From a virus, in the IMG/VR virus record IMGVR_UViG_3300043411_001575, positions 105,659 to 169,658 of that record: 64,000 bases of DNA; one strand, written 5' to 3'. Position numbers and translations under genes: made by a program. Of this stretch, positions 1 to 12,126 are shown in pieces; position 1 is the first letter of the stretch, and the number at the start of each line of letters is the position of its first letter. The notes beneath the pieces are model-generated. The model made no database searches. It saw only the letters and a list, made by a program, of their open reading frames with translations, and was not told the DNA's origin.

Positions 1-35
1 AGTACAAAAGCCCACATTGCACAAAGCCGATGTTA
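1..35 (+). repeat. Partial attC-like site H0 (right arm only, cut by window edge)
   Basis: TGTTA at 31-35; GTTAGCCGCAGTA is complementary to TATTGCGGCTAAC at the end of cassette 1. Confidence 0.7.
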
Positions 36-766
36 GCCGCAGTACATTCTATCAGGGTGATTGTCTTGTGGAAATGGATAAGATTTCCGATAAAAGTGTG
101 GATATGATTTTATGTGATTTGCCTTATGGAACAACAGCTTGCAAATGGGATAGTGTCATTCCTTTTGAGCCACTTTGGAAGCAATATGAAAGGATTATAA
201 AAGATAACGGGGCAATAGTTTTGACAGCTTCGCAACCATTTACAACAATATTAATAAGCAGCAATATAAAGTTATTCAGGTATGAATTAATTTGGCAAAA
301 GGATAAGGCAAGTGGGTTTTTAAATGCTAATAAAATACCATTGAAAGCACACGAAAACGTTTTAGTATTTTACAAAAAGTTACCTACATATAATCCGCAA
401 AAAACCATTGGTGGGCTGCAAAGGAAAAGGACAAGGAAAAAACCAACGCATGAGGTTTTAGGTAAAACTGGTGTAAATGAAAAACACGTTATTTGGCAAG
501 ATAACACAAGATACCCTATAAGTGTTTTAGAATTTGATGTAGATACTATTAACCACAGTTTGCACCCTACTCAAAAACCAATAGCATTAATGGAATATTT
601 AATAAAAACCTACACCAACGAAGGAGAAACAGTTTTAGATAACTGTATGGGTTCAGGAACAACTGGTGTGGCTTGTAAAAAAACAGGTAGGCACTTTATC
701 GGAATAGAAAAGGATGAAAAGTATTTTGAAATTGCCGTTAGCAGGGTGTCTGCGTATTGCGGCTAA
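17..766 (+). CDS. N6-adenine/N4-cytosine DNA methyltransferase (beta class), cassette 1; true start probably upstream of window
   Basis: DLPY motif IV, HPTQKP, DNCMGSGTTG motif I; frame open to the window edge; stop codon is the TAA of TAAC. Confidence 0.92.
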   Translation: MHKADVSRSTFYQGDCLVEMDKISDKSVDMILCDLPYGTTACKWDSVIPFEPLWKQYERIIKDNGAIVLTASQPFTTILISSNIKLFRYELIWQKDKASGFLNANKIPLKAHENVLVFYKKLPTYNPQKTIGGLQRKRTRKKPTHEVLGKTGVNEKHVIWQDNTRYPISVLEFDVDTINHSLHPTQKPIALMEYLIKTYTNEGETVLDNCMGSGTTGVACKKTGRHFIGIEKDEKYFEIAVSRVSAYCG

Positions 767-878
767 CGTTTTGCAGATAGGCGTTGTTGCCTCACAAATG
801 ATTGATTGAAACACTAAATTTAATAATATGGGAAATGATAATTTAAAAACGGAAAGCAATAACGCCAATGTGCTGTTA
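764..878 (+). repeat. attC-like hairpin H1
   Basis: TAACG-tttt-GCAGATAGGCGTTGTTGC ... GCAATAACGCCAATGTGC-TGTTA. Confidence 0.85.
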
Positions 879-1169
879 GGTGCTGGGTTTGTTTACTTGG
901 TAGAATGTTCATCAGGAAGTTGGGATAGTTACCATTGGTGGGTTGGAGGAATATTTGAAAAGCAAGAAGATGCTGATAAATATGCACAAAGCTTGAATGA
1001 TGAAAACAAACGATTAAAAGAGGTTGAATGCTCAATAAAAACACCATTTGAAGATATGACTGATGAAGAAGAAACGGAGTATTACAGGTGGTGGAATGGT
1101 AACAATGATGCTATGGAATGGAATGGTGCTAAAGTTAAGCAGTACCCCATAAACAAACCTTGCACCTAA
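828..1169 (+). CDS. Hypothetical protein, cassette 2
   Basis: 113 aa ORF; ATG inside the H1 loop, stop in the next TAAC. Confidence 0.8.
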   Translation: MGNDNLKTESNNANVLLGAGFVYLVECSSGSWDSYHWWVGGIFEKQEDADKYAQSLNDENKRLKEVECSIKTPFEDMTDEEETEYYRWWNGNNDAMEWNGAKVKQYPINKPCT

Positions 1170-1254
1170 CGATTGGGTGTATGAGAAGGTTTGCTTAGAT
1201 GAACTTTTAAATTTACACAGAATTTTATAGCAAACTTTCTTATACACCTTGTTA
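1167..1254 (+). repeat. attC-like hairpin H2
   Basis: GGTGTATGAGAAGGTTTGCT / AGCAAACTTTCTTATACACC arms between TAACG and TGTTA. Confidence 0.85.
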
Positions 1255-1317
1255 TGTACAGGCACGGTAAATTACCGATGAACTTAATTAAATGAACGAA
1301 ACTAATAATTTTTAAAA

Positions 1318-2058
1318 ATGTGGGATGGCAAATATGCTTTTGAAAAAAGCAAAATAATACAAGGAGATAGTTTGGATAAAATAAAATATATACCTAATGG
1401 CAGTATTGACTTAATTGTAACTGACCCACCGTATAAAATGACGAAACAAGGTAATTCTTGCAGACCAAATTATATGAAAAGTGGAATGGGTGAAAACTTA
1501 TTTGATGGTGAATTACCAAATACAAAAGAATGGATGAAACTTTGTTTTGATAAACTAAAAGACGATGCCCATTTCTATGTATTTACCAATATAAATAGTT
1601 TGCACGAATACCTTGATGTTGCAAAAGAATGTGGATTTAAACTACATAATATTATAAGTATGATTAAAGATACCAAAATGCCTAATAGATGGTATTTAAA
1701 ATACACTGAATTTGTATTGTTTTTTAGAAAAGGTAAAGCGTTTCCAATAAACGATATGACAAGTAGAGATTATGAATTTGTTGAAACACCAACATTAAAA
1801 AATGGCAAAATACATATATCACAAAAACCATTGAATTTTATTGAAAAACTAATAACAAATTCATCAAATGAAGGTGAAATATGTTTGGATTTATTTAGTG
1901 GAAGCGGAACACTTGCAGAAGCCTGTATAAATACAAATAGAGATTTCATTATTATAGAGAAAAACCCAAATGACTTTGAAAAAGGCAAAGAAAGGGTGGG
2001 AAAAATTTTTAAAAATTATGGAATTAACATACAACCTTTAATCGAAGCACAAATGTAG
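1318..2058 (+). CDS. N6/N4 DNA methyltransferase, cassette 3
   Basis: TDPPY, HISQKP, DLFSGSGT motifs. Confidence 0.92.
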   Translation: MWDGKYAFEKSKIIQGDSLDKIKYIPNGSIDLIVTDPPYKMTKQGNSCRPNYMKSGMGENLFDGELPNTKEWMKLCFDKLKDDAHFYVFTNINSLHEYLDVAKECGFKLHNIISMIKDTKMPNRWYLKYTEFVLFFRKGKAFPINDMTSRDYEFVETPTLKNGKIHISQKPLNFIEKLITNSSNEGEICLDLFSGSGTLAEACINTNRDFIIIEKNPNDFEKGKERVGKIFKNYGINIQPLIEAQM

Positions 2059-2068
2059 TGCTTGTACA

Positions 2069-2155
2069 TAACGTTTTCGGGCTTGGCGAAGGTGGGCTTG
2101 TAGGATGCTCAATTTTAGCACAATGTGTCTGCCCACTTTTGCCAAACCCGTGTTA
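2069..2155 (+). repeat. attC-like hairpin H3
   Basis: CGGGCTTGGCGAAGGTGGGC / GCCCACTTTTGCCAAACCCG arms. Confidence 0.85.
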
Positions 2156-2252
2156 TATGAAGTGCCGACTTATTAAGCAGAATTTTAAATTGAAACTATA
2201 AACAGAAAAACAAAAAAGAAAAAAAGCGTAGGGAATTTTAAAAACAAACAAT

Positions 2253-2519
2253 ATGGAAAAGAATTTTATTGAAAAAGCAGAAAAAGAAATTGGTAGAAAA
2301 TTTGGTTTTTTCATCAGATGTGATGATAAAAACAAACCAACAGAAGTATTAACCGATATGTACTTTGAACTATGGGAAACAGAAAAGATGAACGAGATTT
2401 TATCTTTATGCGAAACACATAATCTTAAATACGATTTTGGTTTAGAAAGTTTTGATACCAAAATAGATGCTATTGAACAAGAAATATGTATTGTTTCAAC
2501 TAATTGCGAAAATTCATAA
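2253..2519 (+). CDS. Hypothetical protein, cassette 4 gene 1
   Basis: 88 aa ORF with A-rich leader; stop abuts the next ATG. Confidence 0.65.
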   Translation: MEKNFIEKAEKEIGRKFGFFIRCDDKNKPTEVLTDMYFELWETEKMNEILSLCETHNLKYDFGLESFDTKIDAIEQEICIVSTNCENS

Positions 2520-2520
2520 A

Positions 2521-3264
2521 ATGGAAGCAAATACGATTTACAAAGGCGATTGCTTTGAACTTATAAAGCAAATAACAAAAGCAGATAACGTCAAACTTAT
2601 TATTACAGACCCACCATATTTACATAATAAAGGAGGTGGGAAAACATCGGGAACAGAGGGTAAAAGTTCAATAGCTAATAGCCCTATGTATAAATTCGAT
2701 TCATTTATGATGGAAGATATGAGTTCTTTTTTAGAGGAAGATGTTTATAATCTATTAGATGAATATAAAAGAATAATGACAAAATTAAACTGCTTTATAT
2801 TTACTAATGACACTTTGATACCGTATTATACAATGTGGGCAGTTAAAAACAATAAAAAGTTTACAATTTTAACTTGGGAAAAACCATTGTCGATTTTAAA
2901 CAGAAATAGATTTAGTCAGAATTTAGAATATGTTGTGAGGATTTACGACAATGGAACTGCACTTAATTTAATAGATTTAGAAGCATATCCCGAAAAGAAA
3001 AACTACTACTCAAAAAACAGAAGGTTAAATTCGCCTACAAATAAGATACACCCAACCCAAAAACCATTAGAATATCTACTTGGATTGATTGAGTTAAATA
3101 CAAATGAAGGCGATTTAGTATTAGATACGTTTTTTGGTAGTGGACAAACAGGTAAGGCTTGTCAGATTTTAAATAGAAATTATATCGGTTTTGAAAGAGA
3201 AGAAAAGTATGTTGAATTATCAAATAAATATTTACAACAAGGATTTGAAAAAACACTATTTTAA
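2521..3264 (+). CDS. N6/N4 DNA methyltransferase, cassette 4 gene 2
   Basis: TDPPY, HPTQKP, DTFFGSGQTG; start MEANTIY chosen at 2521 (ORF track starts at 2467). Confidence 0.9.
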   Translation: MEANTIYKGDCFELIKQITKADNVKLIITDPPYLHNKGGGKTSGTEGKSSIANSPMYKFDSFMMEDMSSFLEEDVYNLLDEYKRIMTKLNCFIFTNDTLIPYYTMWAVKNNKKFTILTWEKPLSILNRNRFSQNLEYVVRIYDNGTALNLIDLEAYPEKKNYYSKNRRLNSPTNKIHPTQKPLEYLLGLIELNTNEGDLVLDTFFGSGQTGKACQILNRNYIGFEREEKYVELSNKYLQQGFEKTLF

Positions 3265-3339
3265 AAGTGTGGTGGCTTTTTTCTTTTTGTTTTTCATTAA
3301 CGGAACTTCAATTGGAAACGGTCAGCAAGGCATTTCATA

Positions 3340-3459
3340 TAACGTTCGAGGGCTTGGCGAAGTGGCTGAACCTGAAGCTAAATAGAATTACTAAACTTAA
3401 AAATTAAGAACGAATGATTGATATAATTACTGAACAGCCATTTTGCCAAACCCGTGTTA
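3340..3459 (+). repeat. attC-like hairpin H4
   Basis: GGGCTTGGCGAAGTGGCTG / CAGCCATTTTGCCAAACCC arms; near-identical to H5, with the same arms as H12. Confidence 0.85.
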
Positions 3460-4223
3460 GTGGCAGTACTTTTGTGAATGCTGATTGCTTTGATGTTTTT
3501 CCTTTTATCGAGGATAAATCAATTGATGCTATTATTTGCGATTTGCCCTATGGAACAACTCAATGTAAATGGGATAGCATTATTAATTTAGATTTGATGT
3601 GGACGCAATACAACAGAATAATAAAAGATAACGGCATTTTTATATTATTTGCAGATGAGCCTTTTACAAGCATATTAATAAATAGTAACATTAAAAATTT
3701 TAAGCAAAGAATAACTTGGGATAAACAAATAGCAGGAGGTCATTTAAACGCTAAAAAAATGCTATTGAAAAGAACTGAGGATATATGCTTATTTTCAAAT
3801 GTTAAAAATGGAAAATATACATACAATCCTATTTTAAAAGATAAGGATTTTAAAAACATAAGAGATAGAAACGGAGAAAACAGAAAAGAGTTTAAAGGCG
3901 GTTATGTAGGGAAACACAATAGTACGTTGAGTAAAGAGCATAACAATAAAAAAAGTTACCCAGATAATTTAATTTCCTTTTCAGCAAGAAAAGGCGATTG
4001 TAACCCTATAAATAGATTACACCCAACACAAAAACCACTTGAATTGATGGAATATCTTATAAAAACCTATACTAATGAGGGCGATTTGGTTTTAGATAAC
4101 ACAATGGGTTCTGGAACAACAATTTTAGCTGCTATAAAAAATAATAGAATTGGTATAGGAATTGAAAAGGAAAAACAATATTATGATGTCGCTGTTCGTA
4201 GGGCTTCGGAGTATTGCCACTAA
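3414..4223 (+). CDS. N6/N4 DNA methyltransferase, cassette 5
   Basis: DLPY, HPTQKP, DNTMGSGTT; ATG in H4 loop. Confidence 0.92.
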   Translation: MIDIITEQPFCQTRVSGSTFVNADCFDVFPFIEDKSIDAIICDLPYGTTQCKWDSIINLDLMWTQYNRIIKDNGIFILFADEPFTSILINSNIKNFKQRITWDKQIAGGHLNAKKMLLKRTEDICLFSNVKNGKYTYNPILKDKDFKNIRDRNGENRKEFKGGYVGKHNSTLSKEHNNKKSYPDNLISFSARKGDCNPINRLHPTQKPLELMEYLIKTYTNEGDLVLDNTMGSGTTILAAIKNNRIGIGIEKEKQYYDVAVRRASEYCH

Positions 4224-4340
4224 CGTTATCGGGCTTGGCGAAGTGGCTGAACCCGAAGCTAAATAGAATTACTAAACTTAAAAATTAAAAACGAATGTCA
4301 AATAGAATTACAGAACAGCCATTTTGCCAAACCAGTGTTA
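4221..4340 (+). repeat. attC-like hairpin H5
   Basis: Same arm family as H4. Confidence 0.85.
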
Positions 4341-5053
4341 GTGGCAGTACTTTTGTAAATGCTGATTGCTTTGATGTTTTTCCTTTTATTGAGGACAAAT
4401 CAATTGATGCTATTATTTGCGATTTGCCTTATGGAACTACTGCTTGTAAGTGGGATACAATTATACCATTTGAGCCGCTATGGGAGCAGTACAAGCGAGT
4501 GATTAAACCTAATGGTGCGATAGTGCTGTTTAGCAAAGAGCCATTTACGTGCATATTGAGAACAAGTGAAATTAAAATTTTTAAGCAACCTCTTATTTGG
4601 GATAAGGTTAATTCAGATAACCCTATGCAGGCAAAAAGAAGACATCTAAACACTACGGAGGATATTTCTATCTTTTACAAATCTCAATGTACTTATAACC
4701 CACAAGGTCTTATAAAGTCAAATATAAAAAAGGGAGGGAAGCAAGGGATAATGATTGATAGTAGTGGTAAGGAAAAAGAACAATATATTCAAGAGAATAC
4801 CAATTATCCGAAAAATATATTAGTGTACCCGATAGAAAGAAAGGCGGTTCATCCAACTCAAAAACCCGAAGCACTCCTGCAATACTTAGTCAAAACCTAC
4901 ACTAACGAAGGCGATATAGTCTTAGATAACTGTATGGGTTCAGGTACAACAAATCTTGCTTGTTTAAAATTAAATCGCAAATCAATTGGAATAGAAAAGG
5001 AAAAACAATATTACGATGTCGCTGTTCGTAGGGCTTCTGAGTATTGCCACTAA
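4295..5053 (+). CDS. N6/N4 DNA methyltransferase, cassette 6 (paralog of cassette 5)
   Basis: DLPY, HPTQKP, DNCMGSGTT; ATG in H5 loop; ends near-identical to cassette 5. Confidence 0.92.
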   Translation: MSNRITEQPFCQTSVSGSTFVNADCFDVFPFIEDKSIDAIICDLPYGTTACKWDTIIPFEPLWEQYKRVIKPNGAIVLFSKEPFTCILRTSEIKIFKQPLIWDKVNSDNPMQAKRRHLNTTEDISIFYKSQCTYNPQGLIKSNIKKGGKQGIMIDSSGKEKEQYIQENTNYPKNILVYPIERKAVHPTQKPEALLQYLVKTYTNEGDIVLDNCMGSGTTNLACLKLNRKSIGIEKEKQYYDVAVRRASEYCH

Positions 5054-5107
5054 CGGTATCCGTATAAGGGAAGTGCGAGGAACGAGCATTTACTTTATAC
5101 GGTGTTA
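5051..5107 (+). repeat. attC-like hairpin H6 (shortest, 57 bp)
   Basis: CCGTATAAGGGAAGTGC / GCATTTACTTTATACGG arms. Confidence 0.85.
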
Positions 5108-5198
5108 GCAAAGTGCGTTGGGATTGTGTGTCGGCTCGTTCCAAAACCATTTATTTTCTTTTTTTTGGGGAGGTTTTGAAAACTTTTTTACTAAAATA

Positions 5199-5229
5199 CT
5201 TGCTAAATGACAATTTATATTTATCTTTG
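5199..5229 (+). promoter_or_regulatory. Bacteroidota sigma70-type promoter inside cassette 7
   Basis: TTG at 5200-5202, 19 nt spacer, TATCTTTG at 5222-5229 (TAnnTTTG -7 consensus). Confidence 0.65.
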
Positions 5230-5260
5230 AACCATATTAATAATCTAAAAACAAAACAAA

Positions 5261-5572
5261 ATGATTTACAAAAAAACACACTATGATAAAAAGGCTTTAA
5301 ACAGCCACGTTTCAAAAATAAAAGATGCAGGAGGAAATGCAATAGTAGATGGATTATCGGTTAGATATTTCTATCCATCCAATACCATTGGTGAAATTAG
5401 ATTAAAGCATAAGAGTTGGAAGAAAACAGAAAGACAAGAAGTTTTGTTTATTGTTTTAGTTTCTGAAAAAGATAAAACGCCATACTATTCAGCAATGTAT
5501 TTCCCGAAATGGGTTGAAATAGGAGGTGTTTATGGAAACAAAAATGACATAACAATAATCGAAAAGTTTTAA
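5261..5572 (+). CDS. Hypothetical protein, cassette 7 gene 1
   Basis: 103 aa ORF downstream of the promoter, A-rich leader. Confidence 0.75.
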   Translation: MIYKKTHYDKKALNSHVSKIKDAGGNAIVDGLSVRYFYPSNTIGEIRLKHKSWKKTERQEVLFIVLVSEKDKTPYYSAMYFPKWVEIGGVYGNKNDITIIEKF

Positions 5573-5574
5573 CT

Positions 5575-5730
5575 ATGAAACTGTCTGTAACAGAATATGC
5601 AAAACAGCTTGGCGTAACTCGTCAAGCCGTTTTGTTACAAATTAAAGAAAAAAGGTTGCCTAAAAATGTGAAGGTTGAAAAAATCGGAAATACTTATTCT
5701 TTAACTGTGGGTGGGCAAAAAAGAAAATAA
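5575..5730 (+). CDS. Small helix-turn-helix DNA-binding protein (excisionase/MerR-like), cassette 7 gene 2
   Basis: Read by hand, absent from the ORF track: MKLSVTEYAKQLGVTRQAVLLQIKEKRLPKNVKVEKIGNTYSLTVGGQKRK (51 aa). Confidence 0.7.
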   Translation: MKLSVTEYAKQLGVTRQAVLLQIKEKRLPKNVKVEKIGNTYSLTVGGQKRK

Positions 5731-5749
5731 ATGGTTTTGGAATGTTTGC

Positions 5750-5839
5750 TAACGTATGGTGCTATGAGCAGGTTTGCCTTGCAGAAATGTTCAAATTTAG
5801 CACTAATGTTATTGGCAAACTTGCTTATAGCACGTGTTA
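5750..5839 (+). repeat. attC-like hairpin H7
   Basis: GTGCTATGAGCAGGTTTGCC / GGCAAACTTGCTTATAGCAC arms. Confidence 0.85.
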
Positions 5840-5875
5840 GCGGTAGTTTATTTTTCAAAAATTAAAATTAAAAAT

Positions 5876-6334
5876 ATGGGAACACAAGTAGTAGGAGAAA
5901 GTAACAGCGTTGAGTATAGCACTCCGTTGAAAATAGTACAGCCATTGATAAACGAATTTGGCTTAACAAGAGATGTTTGTGCAAGTGAATTAAACCACAA
6001 ACTACCCGATTATTGGACAAAAGAAGATAATTCACTTGCTATGAATTGGAAAGGTAATTGTTGGATGAACCCACCATTTAGCAGAGATTTGAATAAGTGG
6101 GTAAAGAAAGCGTGTAATGATGCTGAAAGGTTTGGAGGAACGAAAGTTTGTTTAATACCTGTAAGAAGCAATACAAAATGGTGGGCGGAAGTTTGTGTAA
6201 AAGCAGAAATTCGTTTTATCAATGGCGAAGTAAATTTTAATGATGAAGAACGTGGACTTTGGTTGCCGATGTGTATTATCATTTTCGGTGAGAAGGCAAA
6301 GGTTGGCACGTTCTCTGTCTTAAATTACCGCTAA
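5876..6334 (+). CDS. Phage-type DNA N6-adenine methyltransferase (Dam family), cassette 8
   Basis: STP, DVCAS, WMNPPF, LIPVRSNTKWW, IRFINGEVNF motifs; start at MGTQ. Confidence 0.88.
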   Translation: MGTQVVGESNSVEYSTPLKIVQPLINEFGLTRDVCASELNHKLPDYWTKEDNSLAMNWKGNCWMNPPFSRDLNKWVKKACNDAERFGGTKVCLIPVRSNTKWWAEVCVKAEIRFINGEVNFNDEERGLWLPMCIIIFGEKAKVGTFSVLNYR

Positions 6335-6404
6335 CGTTTTGCAGCTAACAGAAGGCGGCTTTTTAGCAAACTTAGTACTTGCCGCTTTTTGTTAGCTGCT
6401 GTTA
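6332..6404 (+). repeat. attC-like hairpin H8
   Basis: GCAGCTAACAGAAGGCGGC / GCCGCTTTTTGTTAGCTGC arms. Confidence 0.85.
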
Positions 6405-6462
6405 GTGGACTGTTAAATTATTAAAAAAGAAAAAAGGAGGGGTGCGAGGGCATCTAAACATA

Positions 6463-7299
6463 ATGGACAAGAAGAAACTTTTAATTGCTTTTAGTGGTGG
6501 AGAAACATCTGCATTTATGGCTCAATGGTTATGGAAACATAAACAAGGTGAATACGAAATGTTATTTGCTTTTGCTAATACTGGGGTTGAGAATGAAGAA
6601 ACTTTAAACTTTGTGCATAAATGCGAAGTTGAATTTGGTATAAATGTTAATTGGTTGGAAGCAGTAATAGACCAAGAGAAAGGGAAAGGCACAAGGCATA
6701 AGATTGTTGATTACAAAACAGCAAGTAGAAACGGACAACCATTTGAGGAACTGATAAAGAAATACGGTTTACCAAACCAACAGCGATTTCACTGCACAAG
6801 GGAGTTAAAAAATAATACATTGATTTCATTTGCAAAAAGTATTTGGGGAAAGGAAAAGTATTATTTAGCAATAGGAATTAGAGTAGATGAATTTGATAGG
6901 ATGAATGATAAATTTAAAGAGTTGAGAATTGTTTATCCGTTAATTTCAGAAATTCCAATGACAAAGCCAAAGATTAATTTTTGGTGGAAACAACAACCGT
7001 TTAGATTAGAATTAAAAGGTTATCAAGGGAATTGTGTTACTTGCTACAAAAAAAGTGATAAAAAATTGTTTCAGATAGCTAAAGAAAATCCAAGTGCATT
7101 TGATTTCTTTGATAGAATGGAAGAACAATATGGAGAAGGTAAGTATCAATTTTTTAGGCAGAACCGAACAGCTAAACAAATTATGGAACAAGCTAAAGAA
7201 TGGAATGGCAATGTAACCGATGACGCACAAAATGTTACAATACAAACAGATTTATTTAGCGAAAGTTGTGAAGCATTTACAAGCGATTGCGGTGTTTAA
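6463..7299 (+). CDS. PAPS-reductase-like / adenine nucleotide alpha-hydrolase family protein, cassette 9
   Basis: FSGGETS PP-loop, FANTGxE, CTRELK, IGIRxDE, YPL, GNCxxC motifs. Confidence 0.85.
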   Translation: MDKKKLLIAFSGGETSAFMAQWLWKHKQGEYEMLFAFANTGVENEETLNFVHKCEVEFGINVNWLEAVIDQEKGKGTRHKIVDYKTASRNGQPFEELIKKYGLPNQQRFHCTRELKNNTLISFAKSIWGKEKYYLAIGIRVDEFDRMNDKFKELRIVYPLISEIPMTKPKINFWWKQQPFRLELKGYQGNCVTCYKKSDKKLFQIAKENPSAFDFFDRMEEQYGEGKYQFFRQNRTAKQIMEQAKEWNGNVTDDAQNVTIQTDLFSESCEAFTSDCGV

Positions 7300-7368
7300 C
7301 CTTTTCACAGTTTTGAAAAAACTGAAAGAGTGCGTGGGCTTTTTCTTTTTTAATAATTTAATTGCCAC

Positions 7369-7494
7369 TAACGGTTCGCAGGTATATTTAGTTGCGGACT
7401 TAGTAACACAAAACTTTAAATTTAGAAGAAATGAAGAAAGAAGAACAAAACTCGAATGAACCACAAAAACCGCAATTGAATATACCTGCTGTTA
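7369..7494 (+). repeat. attC-like hairpin H9
   Basis: GCAGGTATATTTAGTTGCGG / CCGCAATTGAATATACCTGC arms. Confidence 0.85.
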
Positions 7495-7787
7495 GTTGCA
7501 GTGTTGTTCATTGCAAGAAAGCACCTTATGATGTTTATATTGGAAGACCAAGCAAATGGGGTAATCCATTCACACACATAAAAGACGGTAAAACACTTGC
7601 AAAACATATTGTAGGTAGTAGAGATGAAGCAGTCGAAGCATATCTTGAATGGATTACCAACGGAGAAGGTAAACATTTGATGAGTGATTTACACGAATTG
7701 AAAGATAAGGTGCTTGGTTGTTGGTGTCATCCACAATCTTGTCACGGAGATGTACTTTCGGAGTTGGTTGCTAAACATTGCAACTAA
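7431..7787 (+). CDS. DUF4326-like protein, cassette 10
   Basis: VYIGRPSKWGNPF and LGCWCHPQSCHGDVL motifs; ATG in H9 loop. Confidence 0.85.
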   Translation: MKKEEQNSNEPQKPQLNIPAVSCSVVHCKKAPYDVYIGRPSKWGNPFTHIKDGKTLAKHIVGSRDEAVEAYLEWITNGEGKHLMSDLHELKDKVLGCWCHPQSCHGDVLSELVAKHCN

Positions 7788-7909
7788 CGTTTTGCAGGTA
7801 TATTTAGTGCCGAATTTAAAAACGAAAAATATGAATTTTATACAAAAGTTATTTAAAAGCAGAAAGGTTAATGAACCGATGAACTCGGCATTGAATATAC
7901 CTGTTGTTA
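7785..7909 (+). repeat. attC-like hairpin H10
   Basis: GCAGGTATATTTAGTGCCGA / TCGGCATTGAATATACCTGT arms. Confidence 0.85.
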
Positions 7910-8133
7910 TACCTCGTTTATCTTCTGATTGGATAAAATTTGAGGATGAAAAACCACCACACGAAGTAGTATTAGCTGCTTGCGATACTTATGATTGTGG
8001 ATGGACTATGGATACTGTTTGGTGGTATGAAGATAAGCAATGTTGGATGGTTACTGGTGCAGTTAAAAGTACAGAAGCACATTTACCATACACACATTGG
8101 CGTAAATTACCACCATTTCCAAATGAGGTATAA
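7831..8133 (+). CDS. DUF551-like phage protein, cassette 11
   Basis: WIKFEDEKP...THWRKLPPFP pattern; ATG at 7831 in H10 loop. Confidence 0.7.
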   Translation: MNFIQKLFKSRKVNEPMNSALNIPVVIPRLSSDWIKFEDEKPPHEVVLAACDTYDCGWTMDTVWWYEDKQCWMVTGAVKSTEAHLPYTHWRKLPPFPNEV

Positions 8134-8256
8134 CGTATTGGTGCTATACGAAGGAGGCGATTATTAGCACTAAATTTGATGCGGAGTACAAATGTTTGTT
8201 TAACCACAAATGTTTCTGCGGAGTACCAAACCGCCTCTTTTGTATAGCACGTGTTA
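8131..8256 (+). repeat. attC-like hairpin H11
   Basis: GTGCTATACGAAGGAGGCG / CGCCTCTTTTGTATAGCAC arms; TGCGGAGTAC occurs twice in the loop. Confidence 0.85.
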
Positions 8257-8320
8257 TACGCTGGCACGGTTGATTAAACGAGAAACTTAAATTGAAACAC
8301 AAAACAAAATTTTTATTAAA

Positions 8321-9106
8321 ATGAGCGAGGGCAAAAAAGAAATATTATTAGGAGATTGTTTGGAACTTATGAAGGATATACCAAACGGAAGTATTGATAT
8401 GATACTTTGTGATTTACCATACGGAACAACTGCTTGTAAATGGGATAGTGTAATACCTTTTGAACCACTTTGGAAAGAATATGAAAGGATTATAAAGACC
8501 AATGGTGCTATTTTATTGTTTGGAACACAACCATTCACAACAGAACTAATATTGAGCAATAGAAAATTGTTTAAGTATGATATGGTTTGGTGCAAAGACA
8601 AACCTGCTGACTTCGGAAATGGCAATATAAAACCATTAAGATACCACGAAACAATTTGTGTATTTTATACCAAAACGCCAACATACAATAAGCAATTTGA
8701 AAGCAGAAAAGGAACTGGCTATTCAAGGGCTAAATATCCTGTAAATTACATAAACAATTCAGAGCATAAATTTGGAATGAAAGATGGTTCTTTTGATTAT
8801 GCAAATAAAGACAGAATGATTGGAACTGTAATAGATATTACAACTGGTGCAAGAGGTAGCATAAAACACCCAACAGTAAAGCCCGTTCCTTTATTTGAAC
8901 ATTTAATCAAAACATATACCAACGAAGGTGAATTGGTTTTAGATAATACAGCAGGAAGCGGAACAACTGCAATTGCTTGTTTGAATACTAAAAGGCAATT
9001 TATAGTAATGGAAAAAGAACAAAAGTATTACGATATGATTTTAAAAAGGGTGGGAGATTTTAATAAAAATTTTGAACCGCAAACTCTCTTTGGAAACGAA
9101 ATGTAG
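8321..9106 (+). CDS. N6/N4 DNA methyltransferase, cassette 12
   Basis: DLPY, HPTVKP, DNTAGSGTT. Confidence 0.92.
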   Translation: MSEGKKEILLGDCLELMKDIPNGSIDMILCDLPYGTTACKWDSVIPFEPLWKEYERIIKTNGAILLFGTQPFTTELILSNRKLFKYDMVWCKDKPADFGNGNIKPLRYHETICVFYTKTPTYNKQFESRKGTGYSRAKYPVNYINNSEHKFGMKDGSFDYANKDRMIGTVIDITTGARGSIKHPTVKPVPLFEHLIKTYTNEGELVLDNTAGSGTTAIACLNTKRQFIVMEKEQKYYDMILKRVGDFNKNFEPQTLFGNEM

Positions 9107-9116
9107 TGCTTGCGTA

Positions 9117-9236
9117 TAACGGTATCGGGCTTGGCGAAGTGGCTGAACCGAATGTTTGATAGAAGCACAAAACTTAATAATTAAAAACGAATGATTGATA
9201 GAATTACTGAACAGCCATTTTGCCAAACCCGTGTTA
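9117..9236 (+). repeat. attC-like hairpin H12
   Basis: Same arm family as H4/H5. Confidence 0.85.
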
Positions 9237-9985
9237 TGTGCAGGGCGGTTGATAACCTTGAACTCCTTTTGTCGCAACCTGATGAAAGTGTAGATTTGAT
9301 TTACTGTGATATTCTTTATGGAACGGGTAGGAATTTCGGTGATTACCAAGACTTAAAACCAATTAGAAGCGAAATAGAAAGCCACTACCTACCAAGACTT
9401 ATTGAAATGAAACGAGTTTTAAAAAGTACAGGTAGTATTTATTTGCAAATGGATACACGAATAAACCATTGGATGCGCATTTTGATGGATGATGTTTTTG
9501 GGTATGAAAATTTCCGCAATGAAATAGTATTTGGATATAATGGGGGTGGTGTTTCAAAGAATTGTTATCCTAAAAAACACGACATAATCTTGTTTTATTC
9601 TGTTAGTGATAAATACTATTTTAATAACGAAAAGAAACCATACTCCGCTTTAAGTTCACAAAACTTATTGTGGAAACATAGGAATAAAAAAAGACTTGAT
9701 GAACTTAATGATGGCACACCTGTAACCGATGTATGGACTGATTTGAAGTTTAAAATAAATTACCAAGAGGAAGAATATACAGGATATGCTACCCAAAAAA
9801 CAAAAGAATTATTGAGCCGTATTGTTTTAGCTTCCACAAATGAAGGCGATACAGTTGCAGATTATTATTTAGGTAGTGGCACAACGGCAGTAGTTTGTAA
9901 GGAACTGAACCGAAATTTTATAGGTTGCGATATTAATCCAAAAGCTATTGAAATAACAAATGCTCGTTTAGATGCACTTTCGTAG
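9191..9985 (+). CDS. N6/N4 DNA methyltransferase (Mod-like), cassette 13
   Basis: YCDILY (variant motif IV), FRNEI, YATQK, DYYLGSGTT; ATG in H12 loop. Confidence 0.88.
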   Translation: MIDRITEQPFCQTRVMCRAVDNLELLLSQPDESVDLIYCDILYGTGRNFGDYQDLKPIRSEIESHYLPRLIEMKRVLKSTGSIYLQMDTRINHWMRILMDDVFGYENFRNEIVFGYNGGGVSKNCYPKKHDIILFYSVSDKYYFNNEKKPYSALSSQNLLWKHRNKKRLDELNDGTPVTDVWTDLKFKINYQEEEYTGYATQKTKELLSRIVLASTNEGDTVADYYLGSGTTAVVCKELNRNFIGCDINPKAIEITNARLDALS

Positions 9986-10044
9986 CTTTGCACATAACGT
10001 GTATTTAATGGAATGGAGTGTCAAAATCAATTAGTTACATAATA
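9985..10044 (+). other. Putative attI-equivalent primary recombination site
   Basis: Last TAACG (9995-9999) is not followed by a hairpin and lies directly 5' of the recombinase. Confidence 0.55.
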
Positions 10045-10914
10045 ATGGAAGATAAAATTAACAAATTAAGGAGGGAGTTATCCATAAGGAAATATGCTCC
10101 TAATACAGTTGAAACATATTGTTCATGTCTTAAAGTTATTTTTAGTAAATGTGGAATTAATCCAAGTATTGATTCTTTAAAGTCATATTTATTAACTATT
10201 GAAAATAGAAACTACCATAAACAAATAGTCGCTACATTCAGAAACTACTCTGAATTTGTATTAGGTATTAAATTATCTTTAAACGATGTTCCTTATCCTA
10301 GAAAACAAGAAAGTTTGCCTGAAATATATTCAGTTGAAGAGGTTTCTAAATTAATTAATATTCCTAAAAATTTAAAACATCAATCTATAATTTTTTTATT
10401 GTATGGATGTGGACTTAGAGTTAGTGAATTAATTAATTTAAAATTAACTGATATAGATAGTGATAGAATGGTTGTTAACATCCGAAAAGCAAAAGGAAAT
10501 AAGGACAGGCAAATAATGTTGGATGAATCTTTACTTAAATTACTTCGTGATTATTACACTGAATATAAACCAATAAATTATTTATTCAATGGTCAAAAAA
10601 AAGACCAATATAGTGACAGGTCTGTAAATGAACTTCTTAAATATTGGTCTAAAAAAGCAGGTATAAAAAAACATATTCATGCTCATTTATTAAGGCATTC
10701 ATTCGCTACCCATCTTTTAGATGCAGGAATAGACATGGCTATAATTCAAAAGTTATTAGGTCATTCAAACATAAAAACAACGCAAATTTATGCAAAAATT
10801 TCAACCAAATTAATATCTCAAATTAAATCTCCATTATCAAACATTAAAATCAATTCAAATGAAAAATCTAGTAATATTATTCCTTTGTGGAATTCTGATA
10901 GGTTTCCAAACTAA
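10045..10914 (+). CDS. Tyrosine recombinase (XerD/integron-integrase-like, without the IntI I2 insertion)
   Basis: YGCGLRVSE (R), KGNKDR (K), HLLRHSFATH (HxxR), LGHSNIKTTQIY (H, Y); N-terminal SAM-like domain; ORF track starts at GTG 10018. Confidence 0.93.
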   Translation: MEDKINKLRRELSIRKYAPNTVETYCSCLKVIFSKCGINPSIDSLKSYLLTIENRNYHKQIVATFRNYSEFVLGIKLSLNDVPYPRKQESLPEIYSVEEVSKLINIPKNLKHQSIIFLLYGCGLRVSELINLKLTDIDSDRMVVNIRKAKGNKDRQIMLDESLLKLLRDYYTEYKPINYLFNGQKKDQYSDRSVNELLKYWSKKAGIKKHIHAHLLRHSFATHLLDAGIDMAIIQKLLGHSNIKTTQIYAKISTKLISQIKSPLSNIKINSNEKSSNIIPLWNSDRFPN

Positions 10915-10975: not shown

Positions 10976-11737
10976 GTGCTAAAATTAGAAGATAAAGATT
11001 TCAATGACTATGTTACCCATCTTAGTGAATCAGGGTCAAGATTTATTGTAGACGAAAAAAGGAACACTAAAAGTATAATTATTAGTGGAAAATATTTTGC
11101 ATTTACAAAAAACAAAAACCATTTAGCTAAAGGTGAAGAAAAAAAAGAAATGTTATCTCTATTTAGTCAGGTAGGAAAATCTGTTTCAAACTACATAAAA
11201 CTAAATGAGTTTGATGTAGAAAAAATAAAGCAGATTCATCCGCAAACTCAAGTTGACAGAAAAAAATATGAGAAGATGAAAGTAGGAGCTGAGTTCTTCT
11301 ATGTTGATATTTCCCATTGTTTTTGGAGAATTGGTTTTTTAAAAGGATACATTAATCCAAAGCTATACAACAAAGTATTAAAGAACCCAAGTTTAAAGCA
11401 ATTCAGGAACATGTCCCTTGCCATAATTAAAGCAGCTCGCTCTAGGTACTATTTTGATAATGGCAAACTAATAAATAAAGTTACTGAAGAAAGAACCCTG
11501 TGGGAGAATGTATATGATAACATCAGGTTCACCTGCTATAACTTTTTAGGAGAAACAAAGAGTGTTGCAGGAAATAAATTCGTCGCTTACAAAACAGATG
11601 GTATAATGGTCACTAGACCCGCTTTAAAGAAGATTAAAGATGCTTTCACTGCGGCAGGATTCGAATACAAGGTTATCACCTGCTTTAAAGTTGATGATAA
11701 AAACTACTCTTATGGAGGTCTAATTAAGAAGATTTAG
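10976..11737 (+). CDS. Small family-B DNA polymerase palm-like protein
   Basis: YVDISHCF (motif A-like), KQFRNMSL (motif B-like) and YKTDGI (motif C-like) in the correct order; no exonuclease domain. Confidence 0.5.
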   Translation: MLKLEDKDFNDYVTHLSESGSRFIVDEKRNTKSIIISGKYFAFTKNKNHLAKGEEKKEMLSLFSQVGKSVSNYIKLNEFDVEKIKQIHPQTQVDRKKYEKMKVGAEFFYVDISHCFWRIGFLKGYINPKLYNKVLKNPSLKQFRNMSLAIIKAARSRYYFDNGKLINKVTEERTLWENVYDNIRFTCYNFLGETKSVAGNKFVAYKTDGIMVTRPALKKIKDAFTAAGFEYKVITCFKVDDKNYSYGGLIKKI

Positions 11738-11770
11738 AATCAATATCATTGTGCAAAAACTCCAAACAAG

Positions 11771-11908
11771 GGTATTTTTACCCCTGAAAACAAATTATTT
11801 TTACAAGTTATTAACAAATTATGTTAAAATGGTATTTTTACCATATTTATCAATAGTTTCATCACCAAATGAAATACTAAAAACACATTAAAAACAGGTA
11901 ACTTTACC
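11771..11908. promoter_or_regulatory. Three palindromic GGTA-N4-TACC boxes (operator- or origin-like)
   Basis: GGTATTTTTACC at 11771 and 11831, GGTAACTTTACC at 11897, in a gap of about 270 bp. Confidence 0.5.
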
Positions 11909-11938
11909 CCTAATTGTTAATATCTTTTAACTCACAAT

Positions 11939-11969
11939 TTTGGCACTTATCACAAAATACCTACATTTG
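11939..11969 (+). promoter_or_regulatory. Bacteroidota sigma70-type promoter heading the early gene run
   Basis: TTTG 11939-11942, 19 nt spacer, TACATTTG 11962-11969. Confidence 0.75.
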
Positions 11970-12126
11970 TATTGTAATTAACGGTCAAAATAAAACATAA
12001 GCCACCATGAAAATAACTATTCAACTCTCAGATATGGTAACTACCATAGAAAAGATACTAAACTTTGAAGATGTTATGGCAATGGCTCTAATGTACAATC
12101 CTAATTAAACAAATAAAAACAATAAT

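Follow-up and report, generated by a model that had tools for sequence, protein, structure and literature searches.

Integrons (attC/attI) and the attC clusters of phages (CALINs) are the closest described counterparts of the phage array analyzed here, which occupies one end of a 64,000-nucleotide stretch of viral DNA, the window. As in those systems, small and mostly promoterless cassettes are arrayed between imperfect hairpins (57-127 nt), in which only the AAC/GTT core is conserved, an unpaired spacer is present on one side and the terminal loop varies. Self-complementary cassette ends, a simple site adjoining a tyrosine recombinase of the Xer/IntI group and stop codons that often fall in a ...TAAC box are likewise held in common; the inverse core sites of integron attC provide the parallel for a stop codon whose TAA belongs to TAAC. 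Clusters of attC sites (CALINs) are known from virulent phages, and phage methyltransferase cassettes have already been noted (Qi et al. 2023, PMC9892861). In contrast to integrons, the hairpin of the phage array lies 5' of the ORF rather than 3', the ORFs face a recombinase that is co-directional and downstream rather than divergent and upstream, and this recombinase is without the IntI-specific insertion and falls below the IntI model cut-off. The sense strand folds better in the phage array, and its loops carry start codons fused in frame to the cargo.

Recombination sites with a role in translation have precedents. Approximately 20% of class 1 integron cassettes are TIR-deficient, and ORF-11, ORF-17 and ORF-18 of attI1 as well as short attC ORFs have been described, with the proposal that the stem is melted when the site is translated (PMC8876359). 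There, as in the phage, an initiation region in the recombination site would help cassettes that have none of their own, and a short ORF crosses the crossover. These ORFs resemble 16 of 80 phage hairpins in which the loop ORF stops 2-20 codons past GTTA, before a gene with its own start. However, the class 1 site ORF ends and the gene is re-initiated (coupling), whereas the phage site ORF is usually the gene's own 5' end (fusion), and the phage initiation signal is an A-rich unpaired loop in place of the Shine-Dalgarno sequence of class 1. Synthetic attC sites placed in coding sequence worked both within lacZ and when they served as peptide linkers (Nivina et al. 2020, PMC7439510), such that one DNA stretch likewise meets folding constraints and a reading frame. 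Those sites are engineered and belong to IntI1, whereas the phage sites are natural, widespread, N-terminal and include the start codon, and one natural phage arm is read in two frames (QPFCQTRV and SHFAKPVL). The best family matches of the phage recombinase are XerA, XerD and XerC. In CTX-type phages, a folded single-stranded hairpin is an Xer substrate. In contrast to Xer modules (dif, pdif, CTX attP), the phage sites follow the integron pattern, with hairpins built on an AAC/GTT core bounding the successive cassettes of an array. We found no publication in the literature describing recombination hairpins that hold gene starts. We describe here how these sites and cassettes are built, the linkage of cargo frame to loop ATG, the co-movement of head and gene, the in-frame exchange of heads and the layout of the array. 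Window positions 1-10044 very probably represent the part of an integron-like array nearest to its recombinase, in which hairpin heads combine a recombination site with a translation start.

Hairpin heads and their cargos

The array appears to comprise ~38 kb and at least 41 cassettes in a ~170-kb phage of Flavobacterium type, and it extends ~28 kb upstream of the window. Genome-wide, 14 loop starts occur among at least 41 hairpins; loop starts account for about a third of cassettes here and 43% in a wider sample. Hairpins and genes within the window, together with the head at its edge, are as follows.

1..35, +, end of a 125-nt head hairpin (right arm, then GTTA at 32-35), opening 89 nt before the window (genome 105569-105693)
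genome 105621, +, loop ATG of that head, 37 nt before the window start (ORF table)
2..766, +, N6/N4 DNA methyltransferase (Pfam PF01555, 9e-34), start in the preceding head, leader ...KPTLHKADV, stop at the TAA of TAAC 764-767
764..878, +, head hairpin, 115 nt, loop ATG 828, seam in phase 2, fold z -3.2
828..1169, +, 113-aa ORF without known function, loop start, leader MGNDNLKTESNNANVLL, stop TAA in TAAC
1167..1254, +, short hairpin without start, 88 nt
1318-2058, +, methyltransferase, cargo of 1167..1254, own A-rich leader, ATG 64 nt past GTTA
2069..2155, +, short hairpin without start, 87 nt, arms related to QPFCQT heads
2253-2519, +, ORF, cargo of 2069..2155
2521-3264, +, methyltransferase, cargo of 2069..2155
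3340..3459, +, head hairpin, 120 nt, loop ATG 3414, Val codon GTT at 3456-3458, fold z -3.2
3414..4223, +, N6/N4 methyltransferase, 269 aa, leader MIDIITEQPFCQTRV, Pfam PF01555 from residue 37, stop TAA in TAAC
4221..4340, +, head hairpin, 120 nt, loop ATG 4295, fold z -5.4, 11-bp base stem
4295..5053, +, N6/N4 methyltransferase (Pfam match), 252 aa, leader MSNRITEQPFCQTSV, stop TAA in TAAC
5051..5107, +, short hairpin without start, 57 nt
5261-5572 and 5575-5730, +, ORFs of the 57-nt-hairpin cassette
5750..5839, +, short hairpin without start, 90 nt
5876-6334, +, Dam-family methyltransferase (PF05869), cargo of 5750..5839, stop TAA in TAAC
6332..6404, +, short hairpin without start, 73 nt
6463-7299, +, PAPS-reductase-like ORF, cargo of 6332..6404
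7369..7494, +, head hairpin, 126 nt, loop ATG 7431, fold z -6.3
7431..7787, +, DUF4326 protein, 118 aa, leader MKKEEQNSNEPQKPQLNIPAV, stop TAA in TAAC
7785..7909, +, head hairpin, 125 nt, loop ATGs 7831 and 7879, fold z -5.0
7831..8133, +, 100-aa ORF without known function, leader ...NSALNIPVV, stop TAA in TAAC
8131..8256, +, long hairpin without start, 126 nt, extra stem formed by the loop
8321-9106, +, methyltransferase, cargo of 8131..8256, own ATG 65 nt past GTTA
9117..9236, +, head hairpin, 120 nt, loop ATG 9191, fold z -6.1
9191..9985, +, N6/N4 methyltransferase (Pfam, 1e-43), 264 aa, leader MIDRITEQPFCQTRV, last cassette of the array

Inspection of the sequence and ORF tables reveals six loop ATGs (828, 3414, 4295, 7431, 7831 and 9191), each within a TAAC...GTTA hairpin. 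RNA folds place all six in an unpaired, A-rich large terminal loop above stems that are significant (fold z -3.2 to -6.3), where the 11-bp base stem of hairpin 4221..4340 arises because both flanks are complementary. From each ATG the frame stays open across the 3' arm and GTTA and enters an ORF of 100-269 aa, so that sequence, ORF tables and folds agree with the sequence-only reading, which had placed these starts behind A-rich leaders in frame with the right arm and GTTA. The leader peptides it had listed also match the translated tails, which in order from 828 to 9191 are ...SNNANVLL, ...QPFCQTRV, ...QPFCQTSV, ...PQLNIPAV, ...SALNIPVV and ...QPFCQTRV. GTT of the seam is a Val codon in five of the six genes, and at 828 the seam reads CTG TTA. 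Cargos of the six starts are three N6/N4 methyltransferases, one DUF4326 protein and two proteins without known function; a Pfam search gave no match for the ORF at 828..1169. The methyltransferase at 2..766 is 51% identical to its own-start paralogue at 8321.

Two further claims stood in part. Seven genes do stop at the TAA of TAAC (764-766, 1167-1169, 4221-4223, 5051-5053, 6332-6334, 7785-7787 and 8131-8133), but the TAAC holding the stop codon, earlier described as closing, is the opening of the next hairpin. A division by length holds for the six start-bearing hairpins (115-126 nt) and for most of those without a start (88, 87, 57, 90 and 73 nt), but not for 8131-8256, which is start-less at 126 nt. 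The TAA of the next site serves as stop in about a quarter of cassettes. Loop starts may be coupled to upstream termination at this TAA; only three of the six heads come after a gene stopping in TAAC, where the loop ATG lies 46-74 nt beyond that TAA.

Frame linkage between loop start and cargo

Heads of the QPFCQT and LNIPxV types are present in more than 150 IMG/VR contigs, of which the QPFCQT type occurs in more than 116. QPFCQT heads with the ATG 42 nt before GTT have an in-frame ORF of at least 50 aa past GTTA in 64/80 cases, as compared with 4/81 and 0/85 for the other frames. In heads of a variant whose loop ATG is shifted to -41, the same arm is read as ...SHFAKPVL, and long ORFs follow in the shifted frame (22/26) rather than in frame 0 (1/27). 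ATG phase (-42 versus -41) and cargo frame are therefore linked (Fisher p = 4.6e-16). LNIPxV-type heads are in frame in 33/36 cases, and none has a long ORF in another frame. That is to say, the match between loop-ATG phase and cargo frame far exceeds chance. A further 16/80 start-bearing heads encode a short peptide ahead of an own-start cargo, so the loop ATG does not start the gene in every case. Proteins under the same leaders include PF01555 (N6/N4) and PF00145 (C5) methyltransferases, an HNH nuclease and many without a family, and the predicted search result, the same leaders on many unrelated phage proteins, is thus borne out.

Open frames through the arm could instead be a by-product of arm sequence, with true starts at or after GTTA and the loop ATGs incidental. 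Three cargos of this genome carry an in-frame ATG at the seam (window 9191, genome 84314 and genome 81162), and such 9191-type cargos, where GTT ATG places a second in-frame ATG at 9236, could also start there. A GTG 18 nt past the seam, at 3474, is a possible alternative start for 3414 and the sole in-frame one ahead of its motif DLPYG. Against this account, cargo frame is predicted by ATG phase in both head families, as well as for the two phases in which one arm is read, and the distance from ATG to seam changes in multiples of three (leaders of 15, 20, 21, 25 and 26 aa). Near the seam, no in-frame ATG or GTG was found for 828, 4295, 7431 and 7831 in the ORF table and sequence: the next in-frame ATG of 828 comes only 228 nt on, the 4295 frame is free of ATG and GTG from GTTA as far as the catalytic DLPYG, and 7431 has no in-frame start in the 90 nt past GTTA. 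Several cargos continue for more than 200 nt without one. Alignment of the 4295 methyltransferase with its own-start paralogue 8321 places the paralogue's Met near the seam. Conserved Pfam domains of loop-start cargos begin 4-22 residues past the seam, as in the DUF4326 protein (residue 25, four residues past it).

Composition and accessibility of the leaders also match those of real starts. Loop-ATG leaders contain 53% A and 6% G, where ordinary starts have 49% A and internal ATG codons 38% A and 20% G; predicted unpaired probability is 0.65 for loop ATGs, 0.60 for ordinary starts and 0.44 for internal ATGs. One locus (L064) has GTG in place of the loop ATG at an unchanged position. GenBank starts placed at the loop ATG are gene-caller predictions. 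Taken with the cargo frames, these properties make incidental loop ATGs highly improbable, and initiation most likely occurs at the loop ATG. The sequence-only reading had also considered loop frames that turn out random, with real starts downstream of GTTA; this does not hold, because loop frames are non-random in the larger set and most cargos are without a usable start past GTTA. Its proposal that the att site encodes the protein N-terminus is upheld by a start codon and first codons that lie within the hairpin and by frame linkage in the larger sets.

Movement of heads with the genes behind them

If the array followed classical integron polarity, each hairpin would be the attC of the preceding cassette, with crossover at G|TTA, and its loop ATG would be given to a start-less newcomer, which is the portable module in its strict sense. 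Several observations fit this arrangement. The same cargo occurs behind two or three start-bearing heads, with identity from exactly GTTA. The DUF4326 cargo of 7431 is also found behind two other head variants (L137 and L142). Own-start cargos sometimes follow start-bearing heads (16/80), and the 8321 cargo does so in L046. The far end of the array is a half site, right arm and GTTA only. On the sense strand, it is the AAC-bearing arm that carries the additional bases of the sites, an arrangement that in classical attC marks the non-recombined top strand (PMC5027507); by IntI rules, crossover would therefore be at GTTA and not TAAC.

Pairwise comparisons point the other way. The hairpin differs in 100/100 pairs with a common upstream gene and a different downstream gene (shared 0/100). 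Pairs with a common downstream gene and a different upstream gene have the same hairpin in 214/247 cases and a different one in 33; these counts represent non-independent events, and the 206 QPF pairs are biased by the fetching of loci, with 8 same versus 8 different in the unbiased subset. A 506-bp indel distinguishes the cultured phages mumin6-1 and mumin6-3: it comprises TAAC, an ATG-bearing hairpin, GTTA and the gene gp008 and extends to the following TAAC, the repeat at its junction is TAACGTT, and the next hairpin stays in place. A paralogue pair within this genome agrees over the whole cassette: 9191 matches genome 84240-85135 from the head TAAC to the TAAC after the gene. Hairpin 5051..5107 with its 5' leader is ~97% identical to genome 83626 onward, the identity starting at TAAC. 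Homologues of ORF 7831 carry the same head in three loci (L129, L143 and L154). Random assortment predicts many start-less cargos behind start-less hairpins, but among 425 hairpins 181 have an embedded start, 238 precede a cargo with its own start and only 6 have neither. The conserved simple site beside the recombinase also begins at TAAC, with all variation to its left. Together these observations make classical polarity very unlikely.

Normally, therefore, a hairpin and the gene that it starts belong to one cassette, of which the hairpin forms the 5' part. Head exchange at GTTA nevertheless separates the two in 33 pairs, in frame every time for a start-less cargo, so the unit of head and gene is not absolute. 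The earlier notion of a portable module stands as far as these exchanges go but not against the co-movement of hairpin and following gene; heads are therefore exchangeable but not free.

Terminal site, recombinase and a probable dual role of the hairpin

The array ends at the following two features.

9995..10044, +, terminal attI-like simple site, TAAC 9995-9998 without hairpin partner, then ~45 conserved nt to the recombinase start
10045..10914, +, Xer-like tyrosine recombinase (PF00589, 1.8e-43), 289 aa, downstream of and co-directional with the cassettes

The recombinase has an XerA-like best NCBIfam match (206 bits, cut-off 220) and scores 155 bits in two stretches against the integron-integrase model TIGR02249 (cut-off 265). 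Comparison of L002-L004 shows conserved sequence on the right-hand side of the terminal TAAC and variable sequence on its left, and a TAAC simple site also precedes three distant recombinase genes (L020, L118 and L120). In seven loci from several lineages the array is terminated in this way, the recombinase always downstream, co-directional and after the TAAC simple site.

Hairpins of this kind might instead act mainly as RNA elements, that is, as mRNA stabilizers or stems for processing or translation control, with the mosaic generated by homologous rather than site-specific recombination. Such a role would suit start codons located in loops and also the G-T (G-U) wobble pairs that make the sense strand the better-folding one in 397/434 sites, and 113/120 loci have no recombinase within the fetched stretch. 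However, the TAAC/GTTA core is invariant while the remainder of the site varies. The two ends of a cassette are complementary to each other (4.69 of 7 nt) and not to those of neighbors (2.3, as for random pairs), which is sensible only for a circular intermediate. The junction repeat between the cultured phages, at 7 nt, is too short for homologous recombination, and in seven loci the array ends in a conserved simple site and a tyrosine recombinase. We regard a mainly RNA function as very unlikely, although RNA and DNA roles are not exclusive.

Under the integron-like reading, each cassette runs from head hairpin (TAAC, imperfect stem, loop, GTTA) through cargo ORF(s) to a brief inverted repeat of its own opening bases and TAA; in this order the hairpin is 5' of its own gene, opposite to classical integron cassettes. 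The neighboring recombinase may act on the sense strand in its folded form and cross over within TAAC. In start-bearing cassettes the loop holds an unstructured A-rich leader and ATG, a Bacteroidota-type initiation region replacing a Shine-Dalgarno sequence, and a ribosome initiating there would read the 3' arm, the GTTA core and approximately three more site-dictated codons before the start-less cargo, such that the recombination site would encode the first 15-26 residues. With the start in the loop of the recombination hairpin, one piece of DNA would therefore be both recombination site and translation start.

Start codons within the hairpin loops

Each of the six ATGs that the sequence-only reading had placed in hairpin loops (828, 3414, 4295, 7431, 7831 and 9191) lies inside a TAAC...GTTA hairpin of 115-126 nt located 5' of a cargo ORF, an element referred to here as a head. 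All six reading frames remain open through the 3' arm and across the GTTA seam into ORFs of 100-269 aa, and the leader peptides end exactly as that reading had given. The observation of loop-embedded starts reading into cargo genes is confirmed, and the interpretation originally placed on the sites is supported in part. Of the six cargos, three are methyltransferases of PF01555 and one is a DUF4326 protein; the remaining two have no assigned family. Seven stops on the TAA of a TAAC are likewise found in the window (764, 1167, 4221, 5051, 6332, 7785 and 8131). The proposed relation between hairpin length and an internal start holds for the start-less hairpins of 57-90 nt, with the exception of 8131-8256, which spans 126 nt and contains no start.

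Inspection of RNA folds for the six hairpins reveals z-scores of -3.2 to -6.3, where the ATG and the ~40 nt before it form a large, mostly unpaired terminal loop. The predicted unpaired probability around loop ATGs (0.65) is close to that of ordinary starts (0.60) and above that of internal ATGs (0.44). In base composition, the 25-nt stretch preceding a loop ATG contains 53% A and 6% G; the same interval is 49% A before ordinary starts in these arrays, and 38% A and 20% G before internal ATG codons. For 828, 7431 and 7831, the next in-frame ATG occurs more than 130 nt further on in genes encoding proteins of just 100-118 aa, and at 4295 neither ATG nor GTG precedes the catalytic DLPYG motif. 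Domain onset falls four residues after the seam for the DUF4326 protein and 19-22 residues after it for the methyltransferases. Paralogues that use their own start, meaning a cargo ATG downstream of GTTA, have 24-30 residues ahead of the same domain, and the Met of the paralogue at 8321 aligns at about the seam. The GenBank starts of gp006 and gp008 in the mumin phages (cultured Flavobacterium phages) coincide with the loop ATG, which represents a gene caller's choice rather than proof.

Ribosomes terminating upstream had also been proposed to modulate the stem. Three of the six heads (764, 4221 and 7785) follow a gene that stops within TAAC; for the remaining three, the preceding stop lies 11-76 nt before it. 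The loop ATG is positioned 46-74 nt after TAAC. Termination at this point would melt the lower part of the stem, but the start region already lies unpaired in the loop. Translational coupling of this kind may occur, but is less likely than not.

Organization of the array and ownership of the hairpins

The window covers positions 105659-169658 of a 169,658-bp virus record. A whole-genome scan for TAAC...GTTA pairs with complementary arms reveals at least 41 hairpins, the last 12 of which are those of the window. The array extends from genome position 77,358 (numbered on the whole record) to window position 9236, with all hairpins on the + strand, as are the genes, and 14 start-bearing heads are present in the whole genome. 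Sites were called by arm-alignment score; an MFE fold demanding paired TAAC/GTTA was too strict and returned only 6 sites. These counts represent lower bounds, where the arm-alignment scan misses sites such as the head of genome ORF 86852. All sites span 57-127 nt, with a 4-nt one-sided bulge after the core and loops of 10-70 nt. In keeping with attC sites, the hairpins pair imperfectly: the conserved AAC/GTT core closes the stem at its base, a spacer is left unpaired and the terminal loop varies. An Rfam scan at gathering thresholds returned no family match anywhere in the window. The array terminates in a partner-less TAAC (9995-9998), and the following gene lies directly behind it:

10045-10914, + strand (same strand as the cassettes): tyrosine recombinase (PF00589, 1.8e-43)

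This gene is downstream of the array and co-directional with it in 7/7 loci. Its best matches are Xer families, headed by the XerA-like model NF040815 (206 bits, cut-off 220). The integron integrase model TIGR02249 scores 155 bits in two stretches (cut-off 265), and NF011946 scores 108 bits (cut-off 435). Assignment to IntI, which calls for the IntI-specific extra domain and a score above the curated cut-off, does not hold for this enzyme. A simple attI-like site is present, where TAAC and ~45 nt are conserved in four related loci and the cassette side is variable. Comparison with three relatives encoding 76-79% identical recombinases indicates conservation from TAAC rightwards and variability leftwards, and three distant loci (38-39% identical recombinases) share the same layout, with a TAAC simple site before the gene.

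Several further features were observed in and around the array. At its far end, ~28 kb upstream of the window, genome 77250-77362 holds a half site consisting of a right arm and GTTA, lacking TAAC or a left arm in front, with a normal cassette behind it; possible readings are that the oldest head was truncated, or that this is where the array has its outer boundary. A G-rich word (roughly AGTGCGTGGGC plus a T run) at 3264-3292, 5108-5125, 6428-6450 and 7325-7350 occupies the space separating a cargo ORF from the TAAC that follows, or directly succeeds a hairpin, and is also present at ~3507-3520 of L004, one of the compared loci. At least seven members of a 50-61-aa family (M..LSVT.YAK.LGVTRQA.LLQIKEKRLP...) are encoded in the array (window 5575-5730; genome 80918, 84036, 89190, 93899, 94736 and 103422), always as the final ORF of its cassette directly before the next hairpin. 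Its members have no Pfam match, are helix-turn-helix-like in appearance, and could act as a regulator or recombination directionality factor. A 253-aa ORF just after the recombinase (10976-11737) has no Pfam match, and the region behind it (11740-12120) is non-coding and AT-rich. The unannotated 497-aa ORF at 33146-34639 returned no match by tblastn against GenBank phages.

To which gene each hairpin belongs was addressed through comparison of junctions. For pairs sharing only the upstream gene, the hairpin differs in 100/100, and for pairs sharing only the downstream gene 214 have the same hairpin and 33 a different one, where the 206 QPF pairs (heads with the QPFCQT-type arm of 3414, 4295 and 9191) are biased by the search and the unbiased subset gives 8 same versus 8 different. 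Two copies of the 9191-type methyltransferase in the genome are alike from the head TAAC up to the TAAC that follows the gene, and their similarity stops there. The otherwise collinear mumin6-1 and mumin6-3 differ by 506 bp, comprising TAAC, a loop-ATG hairpin, GTTA and gp008 up to the next TAAC, with TAACGTT as the junction repeat. The pair test, the paralogue copies, the recombinase-side site and the mumin indel together define the cassette as head plus gene, such that the array is an integron written backwards relative to its genes. The classical polarity, with the hairpin 3' of its gene, is suggested by the position of the extra bases in the stem and is rejected by the pair test, the paralogues and the mumin indel. 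High-identity alignments end at TAAC and never at GTTA, a pattern biased by how the loci were fetched.

The bases flanking each gene were also compared. Between the 7 nt that follow GTTA and the 7 nt that precede the next TAAC, 4.69/7 positions are complementary, versus 2.38/7 for the 7 nt before the TAAC of the same hairpin, which is the random level (controls 2.3). That is to say, each gene is bracketed by its own inverted repeat, an arrangement that fits a putative circular intermediate and does not by itself give the polarity. Cassettes are shared in different neighbourhoods across loci, as discrete units would be.

At 397/434 sites, the sense strand forms the more stable fold of the two strands (median 2.8 kcal/mol, DNA parameters) because the mismatches are G-T on the sense strand. 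This bias fits recombination of a folded sense strand with a TAAC crossover, and equally a stem in the mRNA. On the sense strand, the extrahelical bases fall within the AAC-bearing arm, giving a geometry unlike that of IntI substrates, a difference that fits a Xer-like enzyme. In classical attC sites, by contrast, the recombined strand carries extrahelical bases opposite the AAC arm (PMC5027507). Judging from breakpoints and the simple site, we infer TAAC of the sense strand as the probable crossover, including the strand cut and the position of the cut, and the IntI rule may not apply to a non-IntI enzyme. Overall, a head hairpin that serves as both recombination site and translation start within a reversed-polarity array is probably the mechanism at work.

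Reading frames and exchange of heads

Random loop ATG frames in a larger set would have counted against the sites encoding N-termini, and the frames proved to be far from random. Exact copies of the right arm of the 3414, 4295 and 9191 heads are present in more than 116 IMG/VR contigs. For heads with the ATG 42 nt upstream of GTT, 64/80 sites continue in that frame into an ORF of 50 aa or more beyond GTTA, versus 4/81 and 0/85 for the other two frames. In a loop variant with the ATG at -41, the same arm reads ...NSHFAKPVL rather than ...EQPFCQTRV, and the long ORF is found in the shifted frame in 22/26 and in frame 0 in 1/27. ATG phase therefore predicts cargo frame (Fisher p = 4.6e-16). A single 25-nt arm (window 3435-3459) is translated in two frames across head variants in the compared loci L010, L023, L098 and others, with each frame matched to cargos in that frame. 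The arm of the 7431 and 7831 heads (LNIPxV type) occurs in 36 contigs, of which 33 show a long ORF in the frame set by the loop ATG. Its leaders comprise 15, 20, 21, 25 or 26 residues, so their length changes in whole codons, and in locus L064 a GTG replaces the loop ATG at the same position. Across 425 hairpins from ~120 loci, 181 starts are embedded in the loop, 238 lie downstream and 6 hairpins have neither, with the GTTA seam used in three phases (102, 65 and 14 cases).

The expectation that the same leaders would head unrelated phage proteins is borne out. Cargos under QPFCQTRV or SHFAKPVL include several PF01555 methyltransferase families, an HNH nuclease, a C5 methyltransferase with a PF00145 domain from residue 22 onwards, and no fewer than 10 families without a Pfam match; at least 17 different cargos occur under LNIPxV. 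Roughly three residues recur after the seam (SGS, MCR, MRS, ICS and others), representing the inverted-repeat end of the cassette.

Identity between loci sometimes begins exactly at GTTA. A start-less methyltransferase beginning SGSTF... is found in frame behind three head types (...QPFCQTRV, ...TQSCQTSV and ...ALSIARV), a PAVP... cargo behind two phase-2 heads and an MCRAVDNL cargo behind two heads, both also in frame. As judged from these comparisons, heads are exchangeable between cargos. The idea of a portable initiation module stands insofar as heads are exchanged in frame at GTTA, and is qualified in that the hairpin is normally part of a cassette with the gene behind it. Among start-bearing QPF heads, the loop ORF runs on as the gene itself in 64/80; the other 16/80 precede a cargo with its own start, and their loop ORF terminates within 2-20 codons of GTT, leaving 25-105 nt to the cargo start.

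Tentatively, heads may function as in-frame adaptors in all three seam phases, which would capture start-less ORF fragments, create immediate N-terminal fusions and occasionally re-head a gene at GTTA; we consider this a possibility of somewhat below even standing. The cassette system would then be widespread and undescribed, with a non-IntI recombinase and reversed polarity, recombination would build and shuffle genes rather than merely store them, and its main use would be to vary the anti-restriction methyltransferase set of the phage.

Two kinds of mosaicism were also observed among cassettes. In methyltransferase cassettes (window 3414-5053 and 9191-9985; genome 77818, 84314, 86852 and 102169), similarity is 87-100% over 100-300 nt at the 5' end and over 200 nt at the 3' end, and 40-60% in the middle, which suggests exchange of target-recognition parts. 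A 57-nt hairpin with a ~150-nt leader is 97-100% identical between window 5051-5290 and genome 83626-83870; the ORFs behind it differ and identity stops at about the ORF start, such that the cargo seems to have been replaced inside a reused scaffold.

Relation to integrons and consequences for phage biology

In a classical integron, each ORF is followed by its attC, a common promoter is located at attI, and the integrase is divergent, with the ORFs reading away from it. In contrast, the hairpin here precedes the ORF and the recombinase is downstream and co-directional; compared to classical attC, the AAC arm itself carries the extra bases. A CALIN consists of at least two attC without a nearby integrase, which differs from this array with its adjoining tyrosine recombinase; the label may suit the mumin phages, where no recombinase is annotated in the first 9 kb. 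The array belongs to the integron kind, as a variant with reversed polarity and site-encoded starts.

Clusters of attC, some with methyltransferase cassettes, are known in virulent phages (Qi et al. 2023, PMC9892861), and class 1 integrons have att sites that aid translation (PMC8876359). The 16/80 heads with a short loop ORF before an own-start gene resemble ORF-11 of attI1, where the site ORF ends near the crossover, in contrast to the site ORFs that continue as the gene. Recombination sites embedded in coding sequence have been engineered (PMC7439510), and loop-start heads represent their natural counterpart. Beyond Qi et al. and the class 1 integron translation work, our search found no literature on reversed-polarity cassettes or phage cassette arrays with site-encoded starts. 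For the mumin phages, 15 methyltransferase genes that vary among isolates have been linked to plating efficiency on different hosts, in a paper that reports neither hairpins nor cassettes (PMC7077304).

Stem-loops are also found upstream of the integrase in Polaribacter phages Freya_10 and Freya_1 (L006/L007; MT732472, MT732463), and among ten cultured Freya isolates, otherwise nearly identical, the stretch of small ORFs and stem-loops immediately before this gene varies by 0-4.9 kb. The Freya integrase is 31% identical and its sites look different from those of the window. These cultured phages may harbor a second, more distant cassette system with the same layout.

If true, integron-type recombination is not confined to IntI-bearing bacteria, and many Flavobacterium-type phages, cultured isolates included, carry large arrays run by a Xer-like enzyme. 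The recombination site would have been recruited both to start translation and to encode the N-terminus, such that a single insertion would supply a gene ready for translation, with neither a Shine-Dalgarno sequence nor a promoter. Loop-start heads would explain the odd shared N-terminal peptides that gene callers place on unrelated phage proteins, and would provide a rule for locating cassette boundaries. Orphan DNA methyltransferases predominate among the cargos, which, together with the link to mumin plating efficiency, makes the cassette system a plausible engine of host-range variation against restriction.
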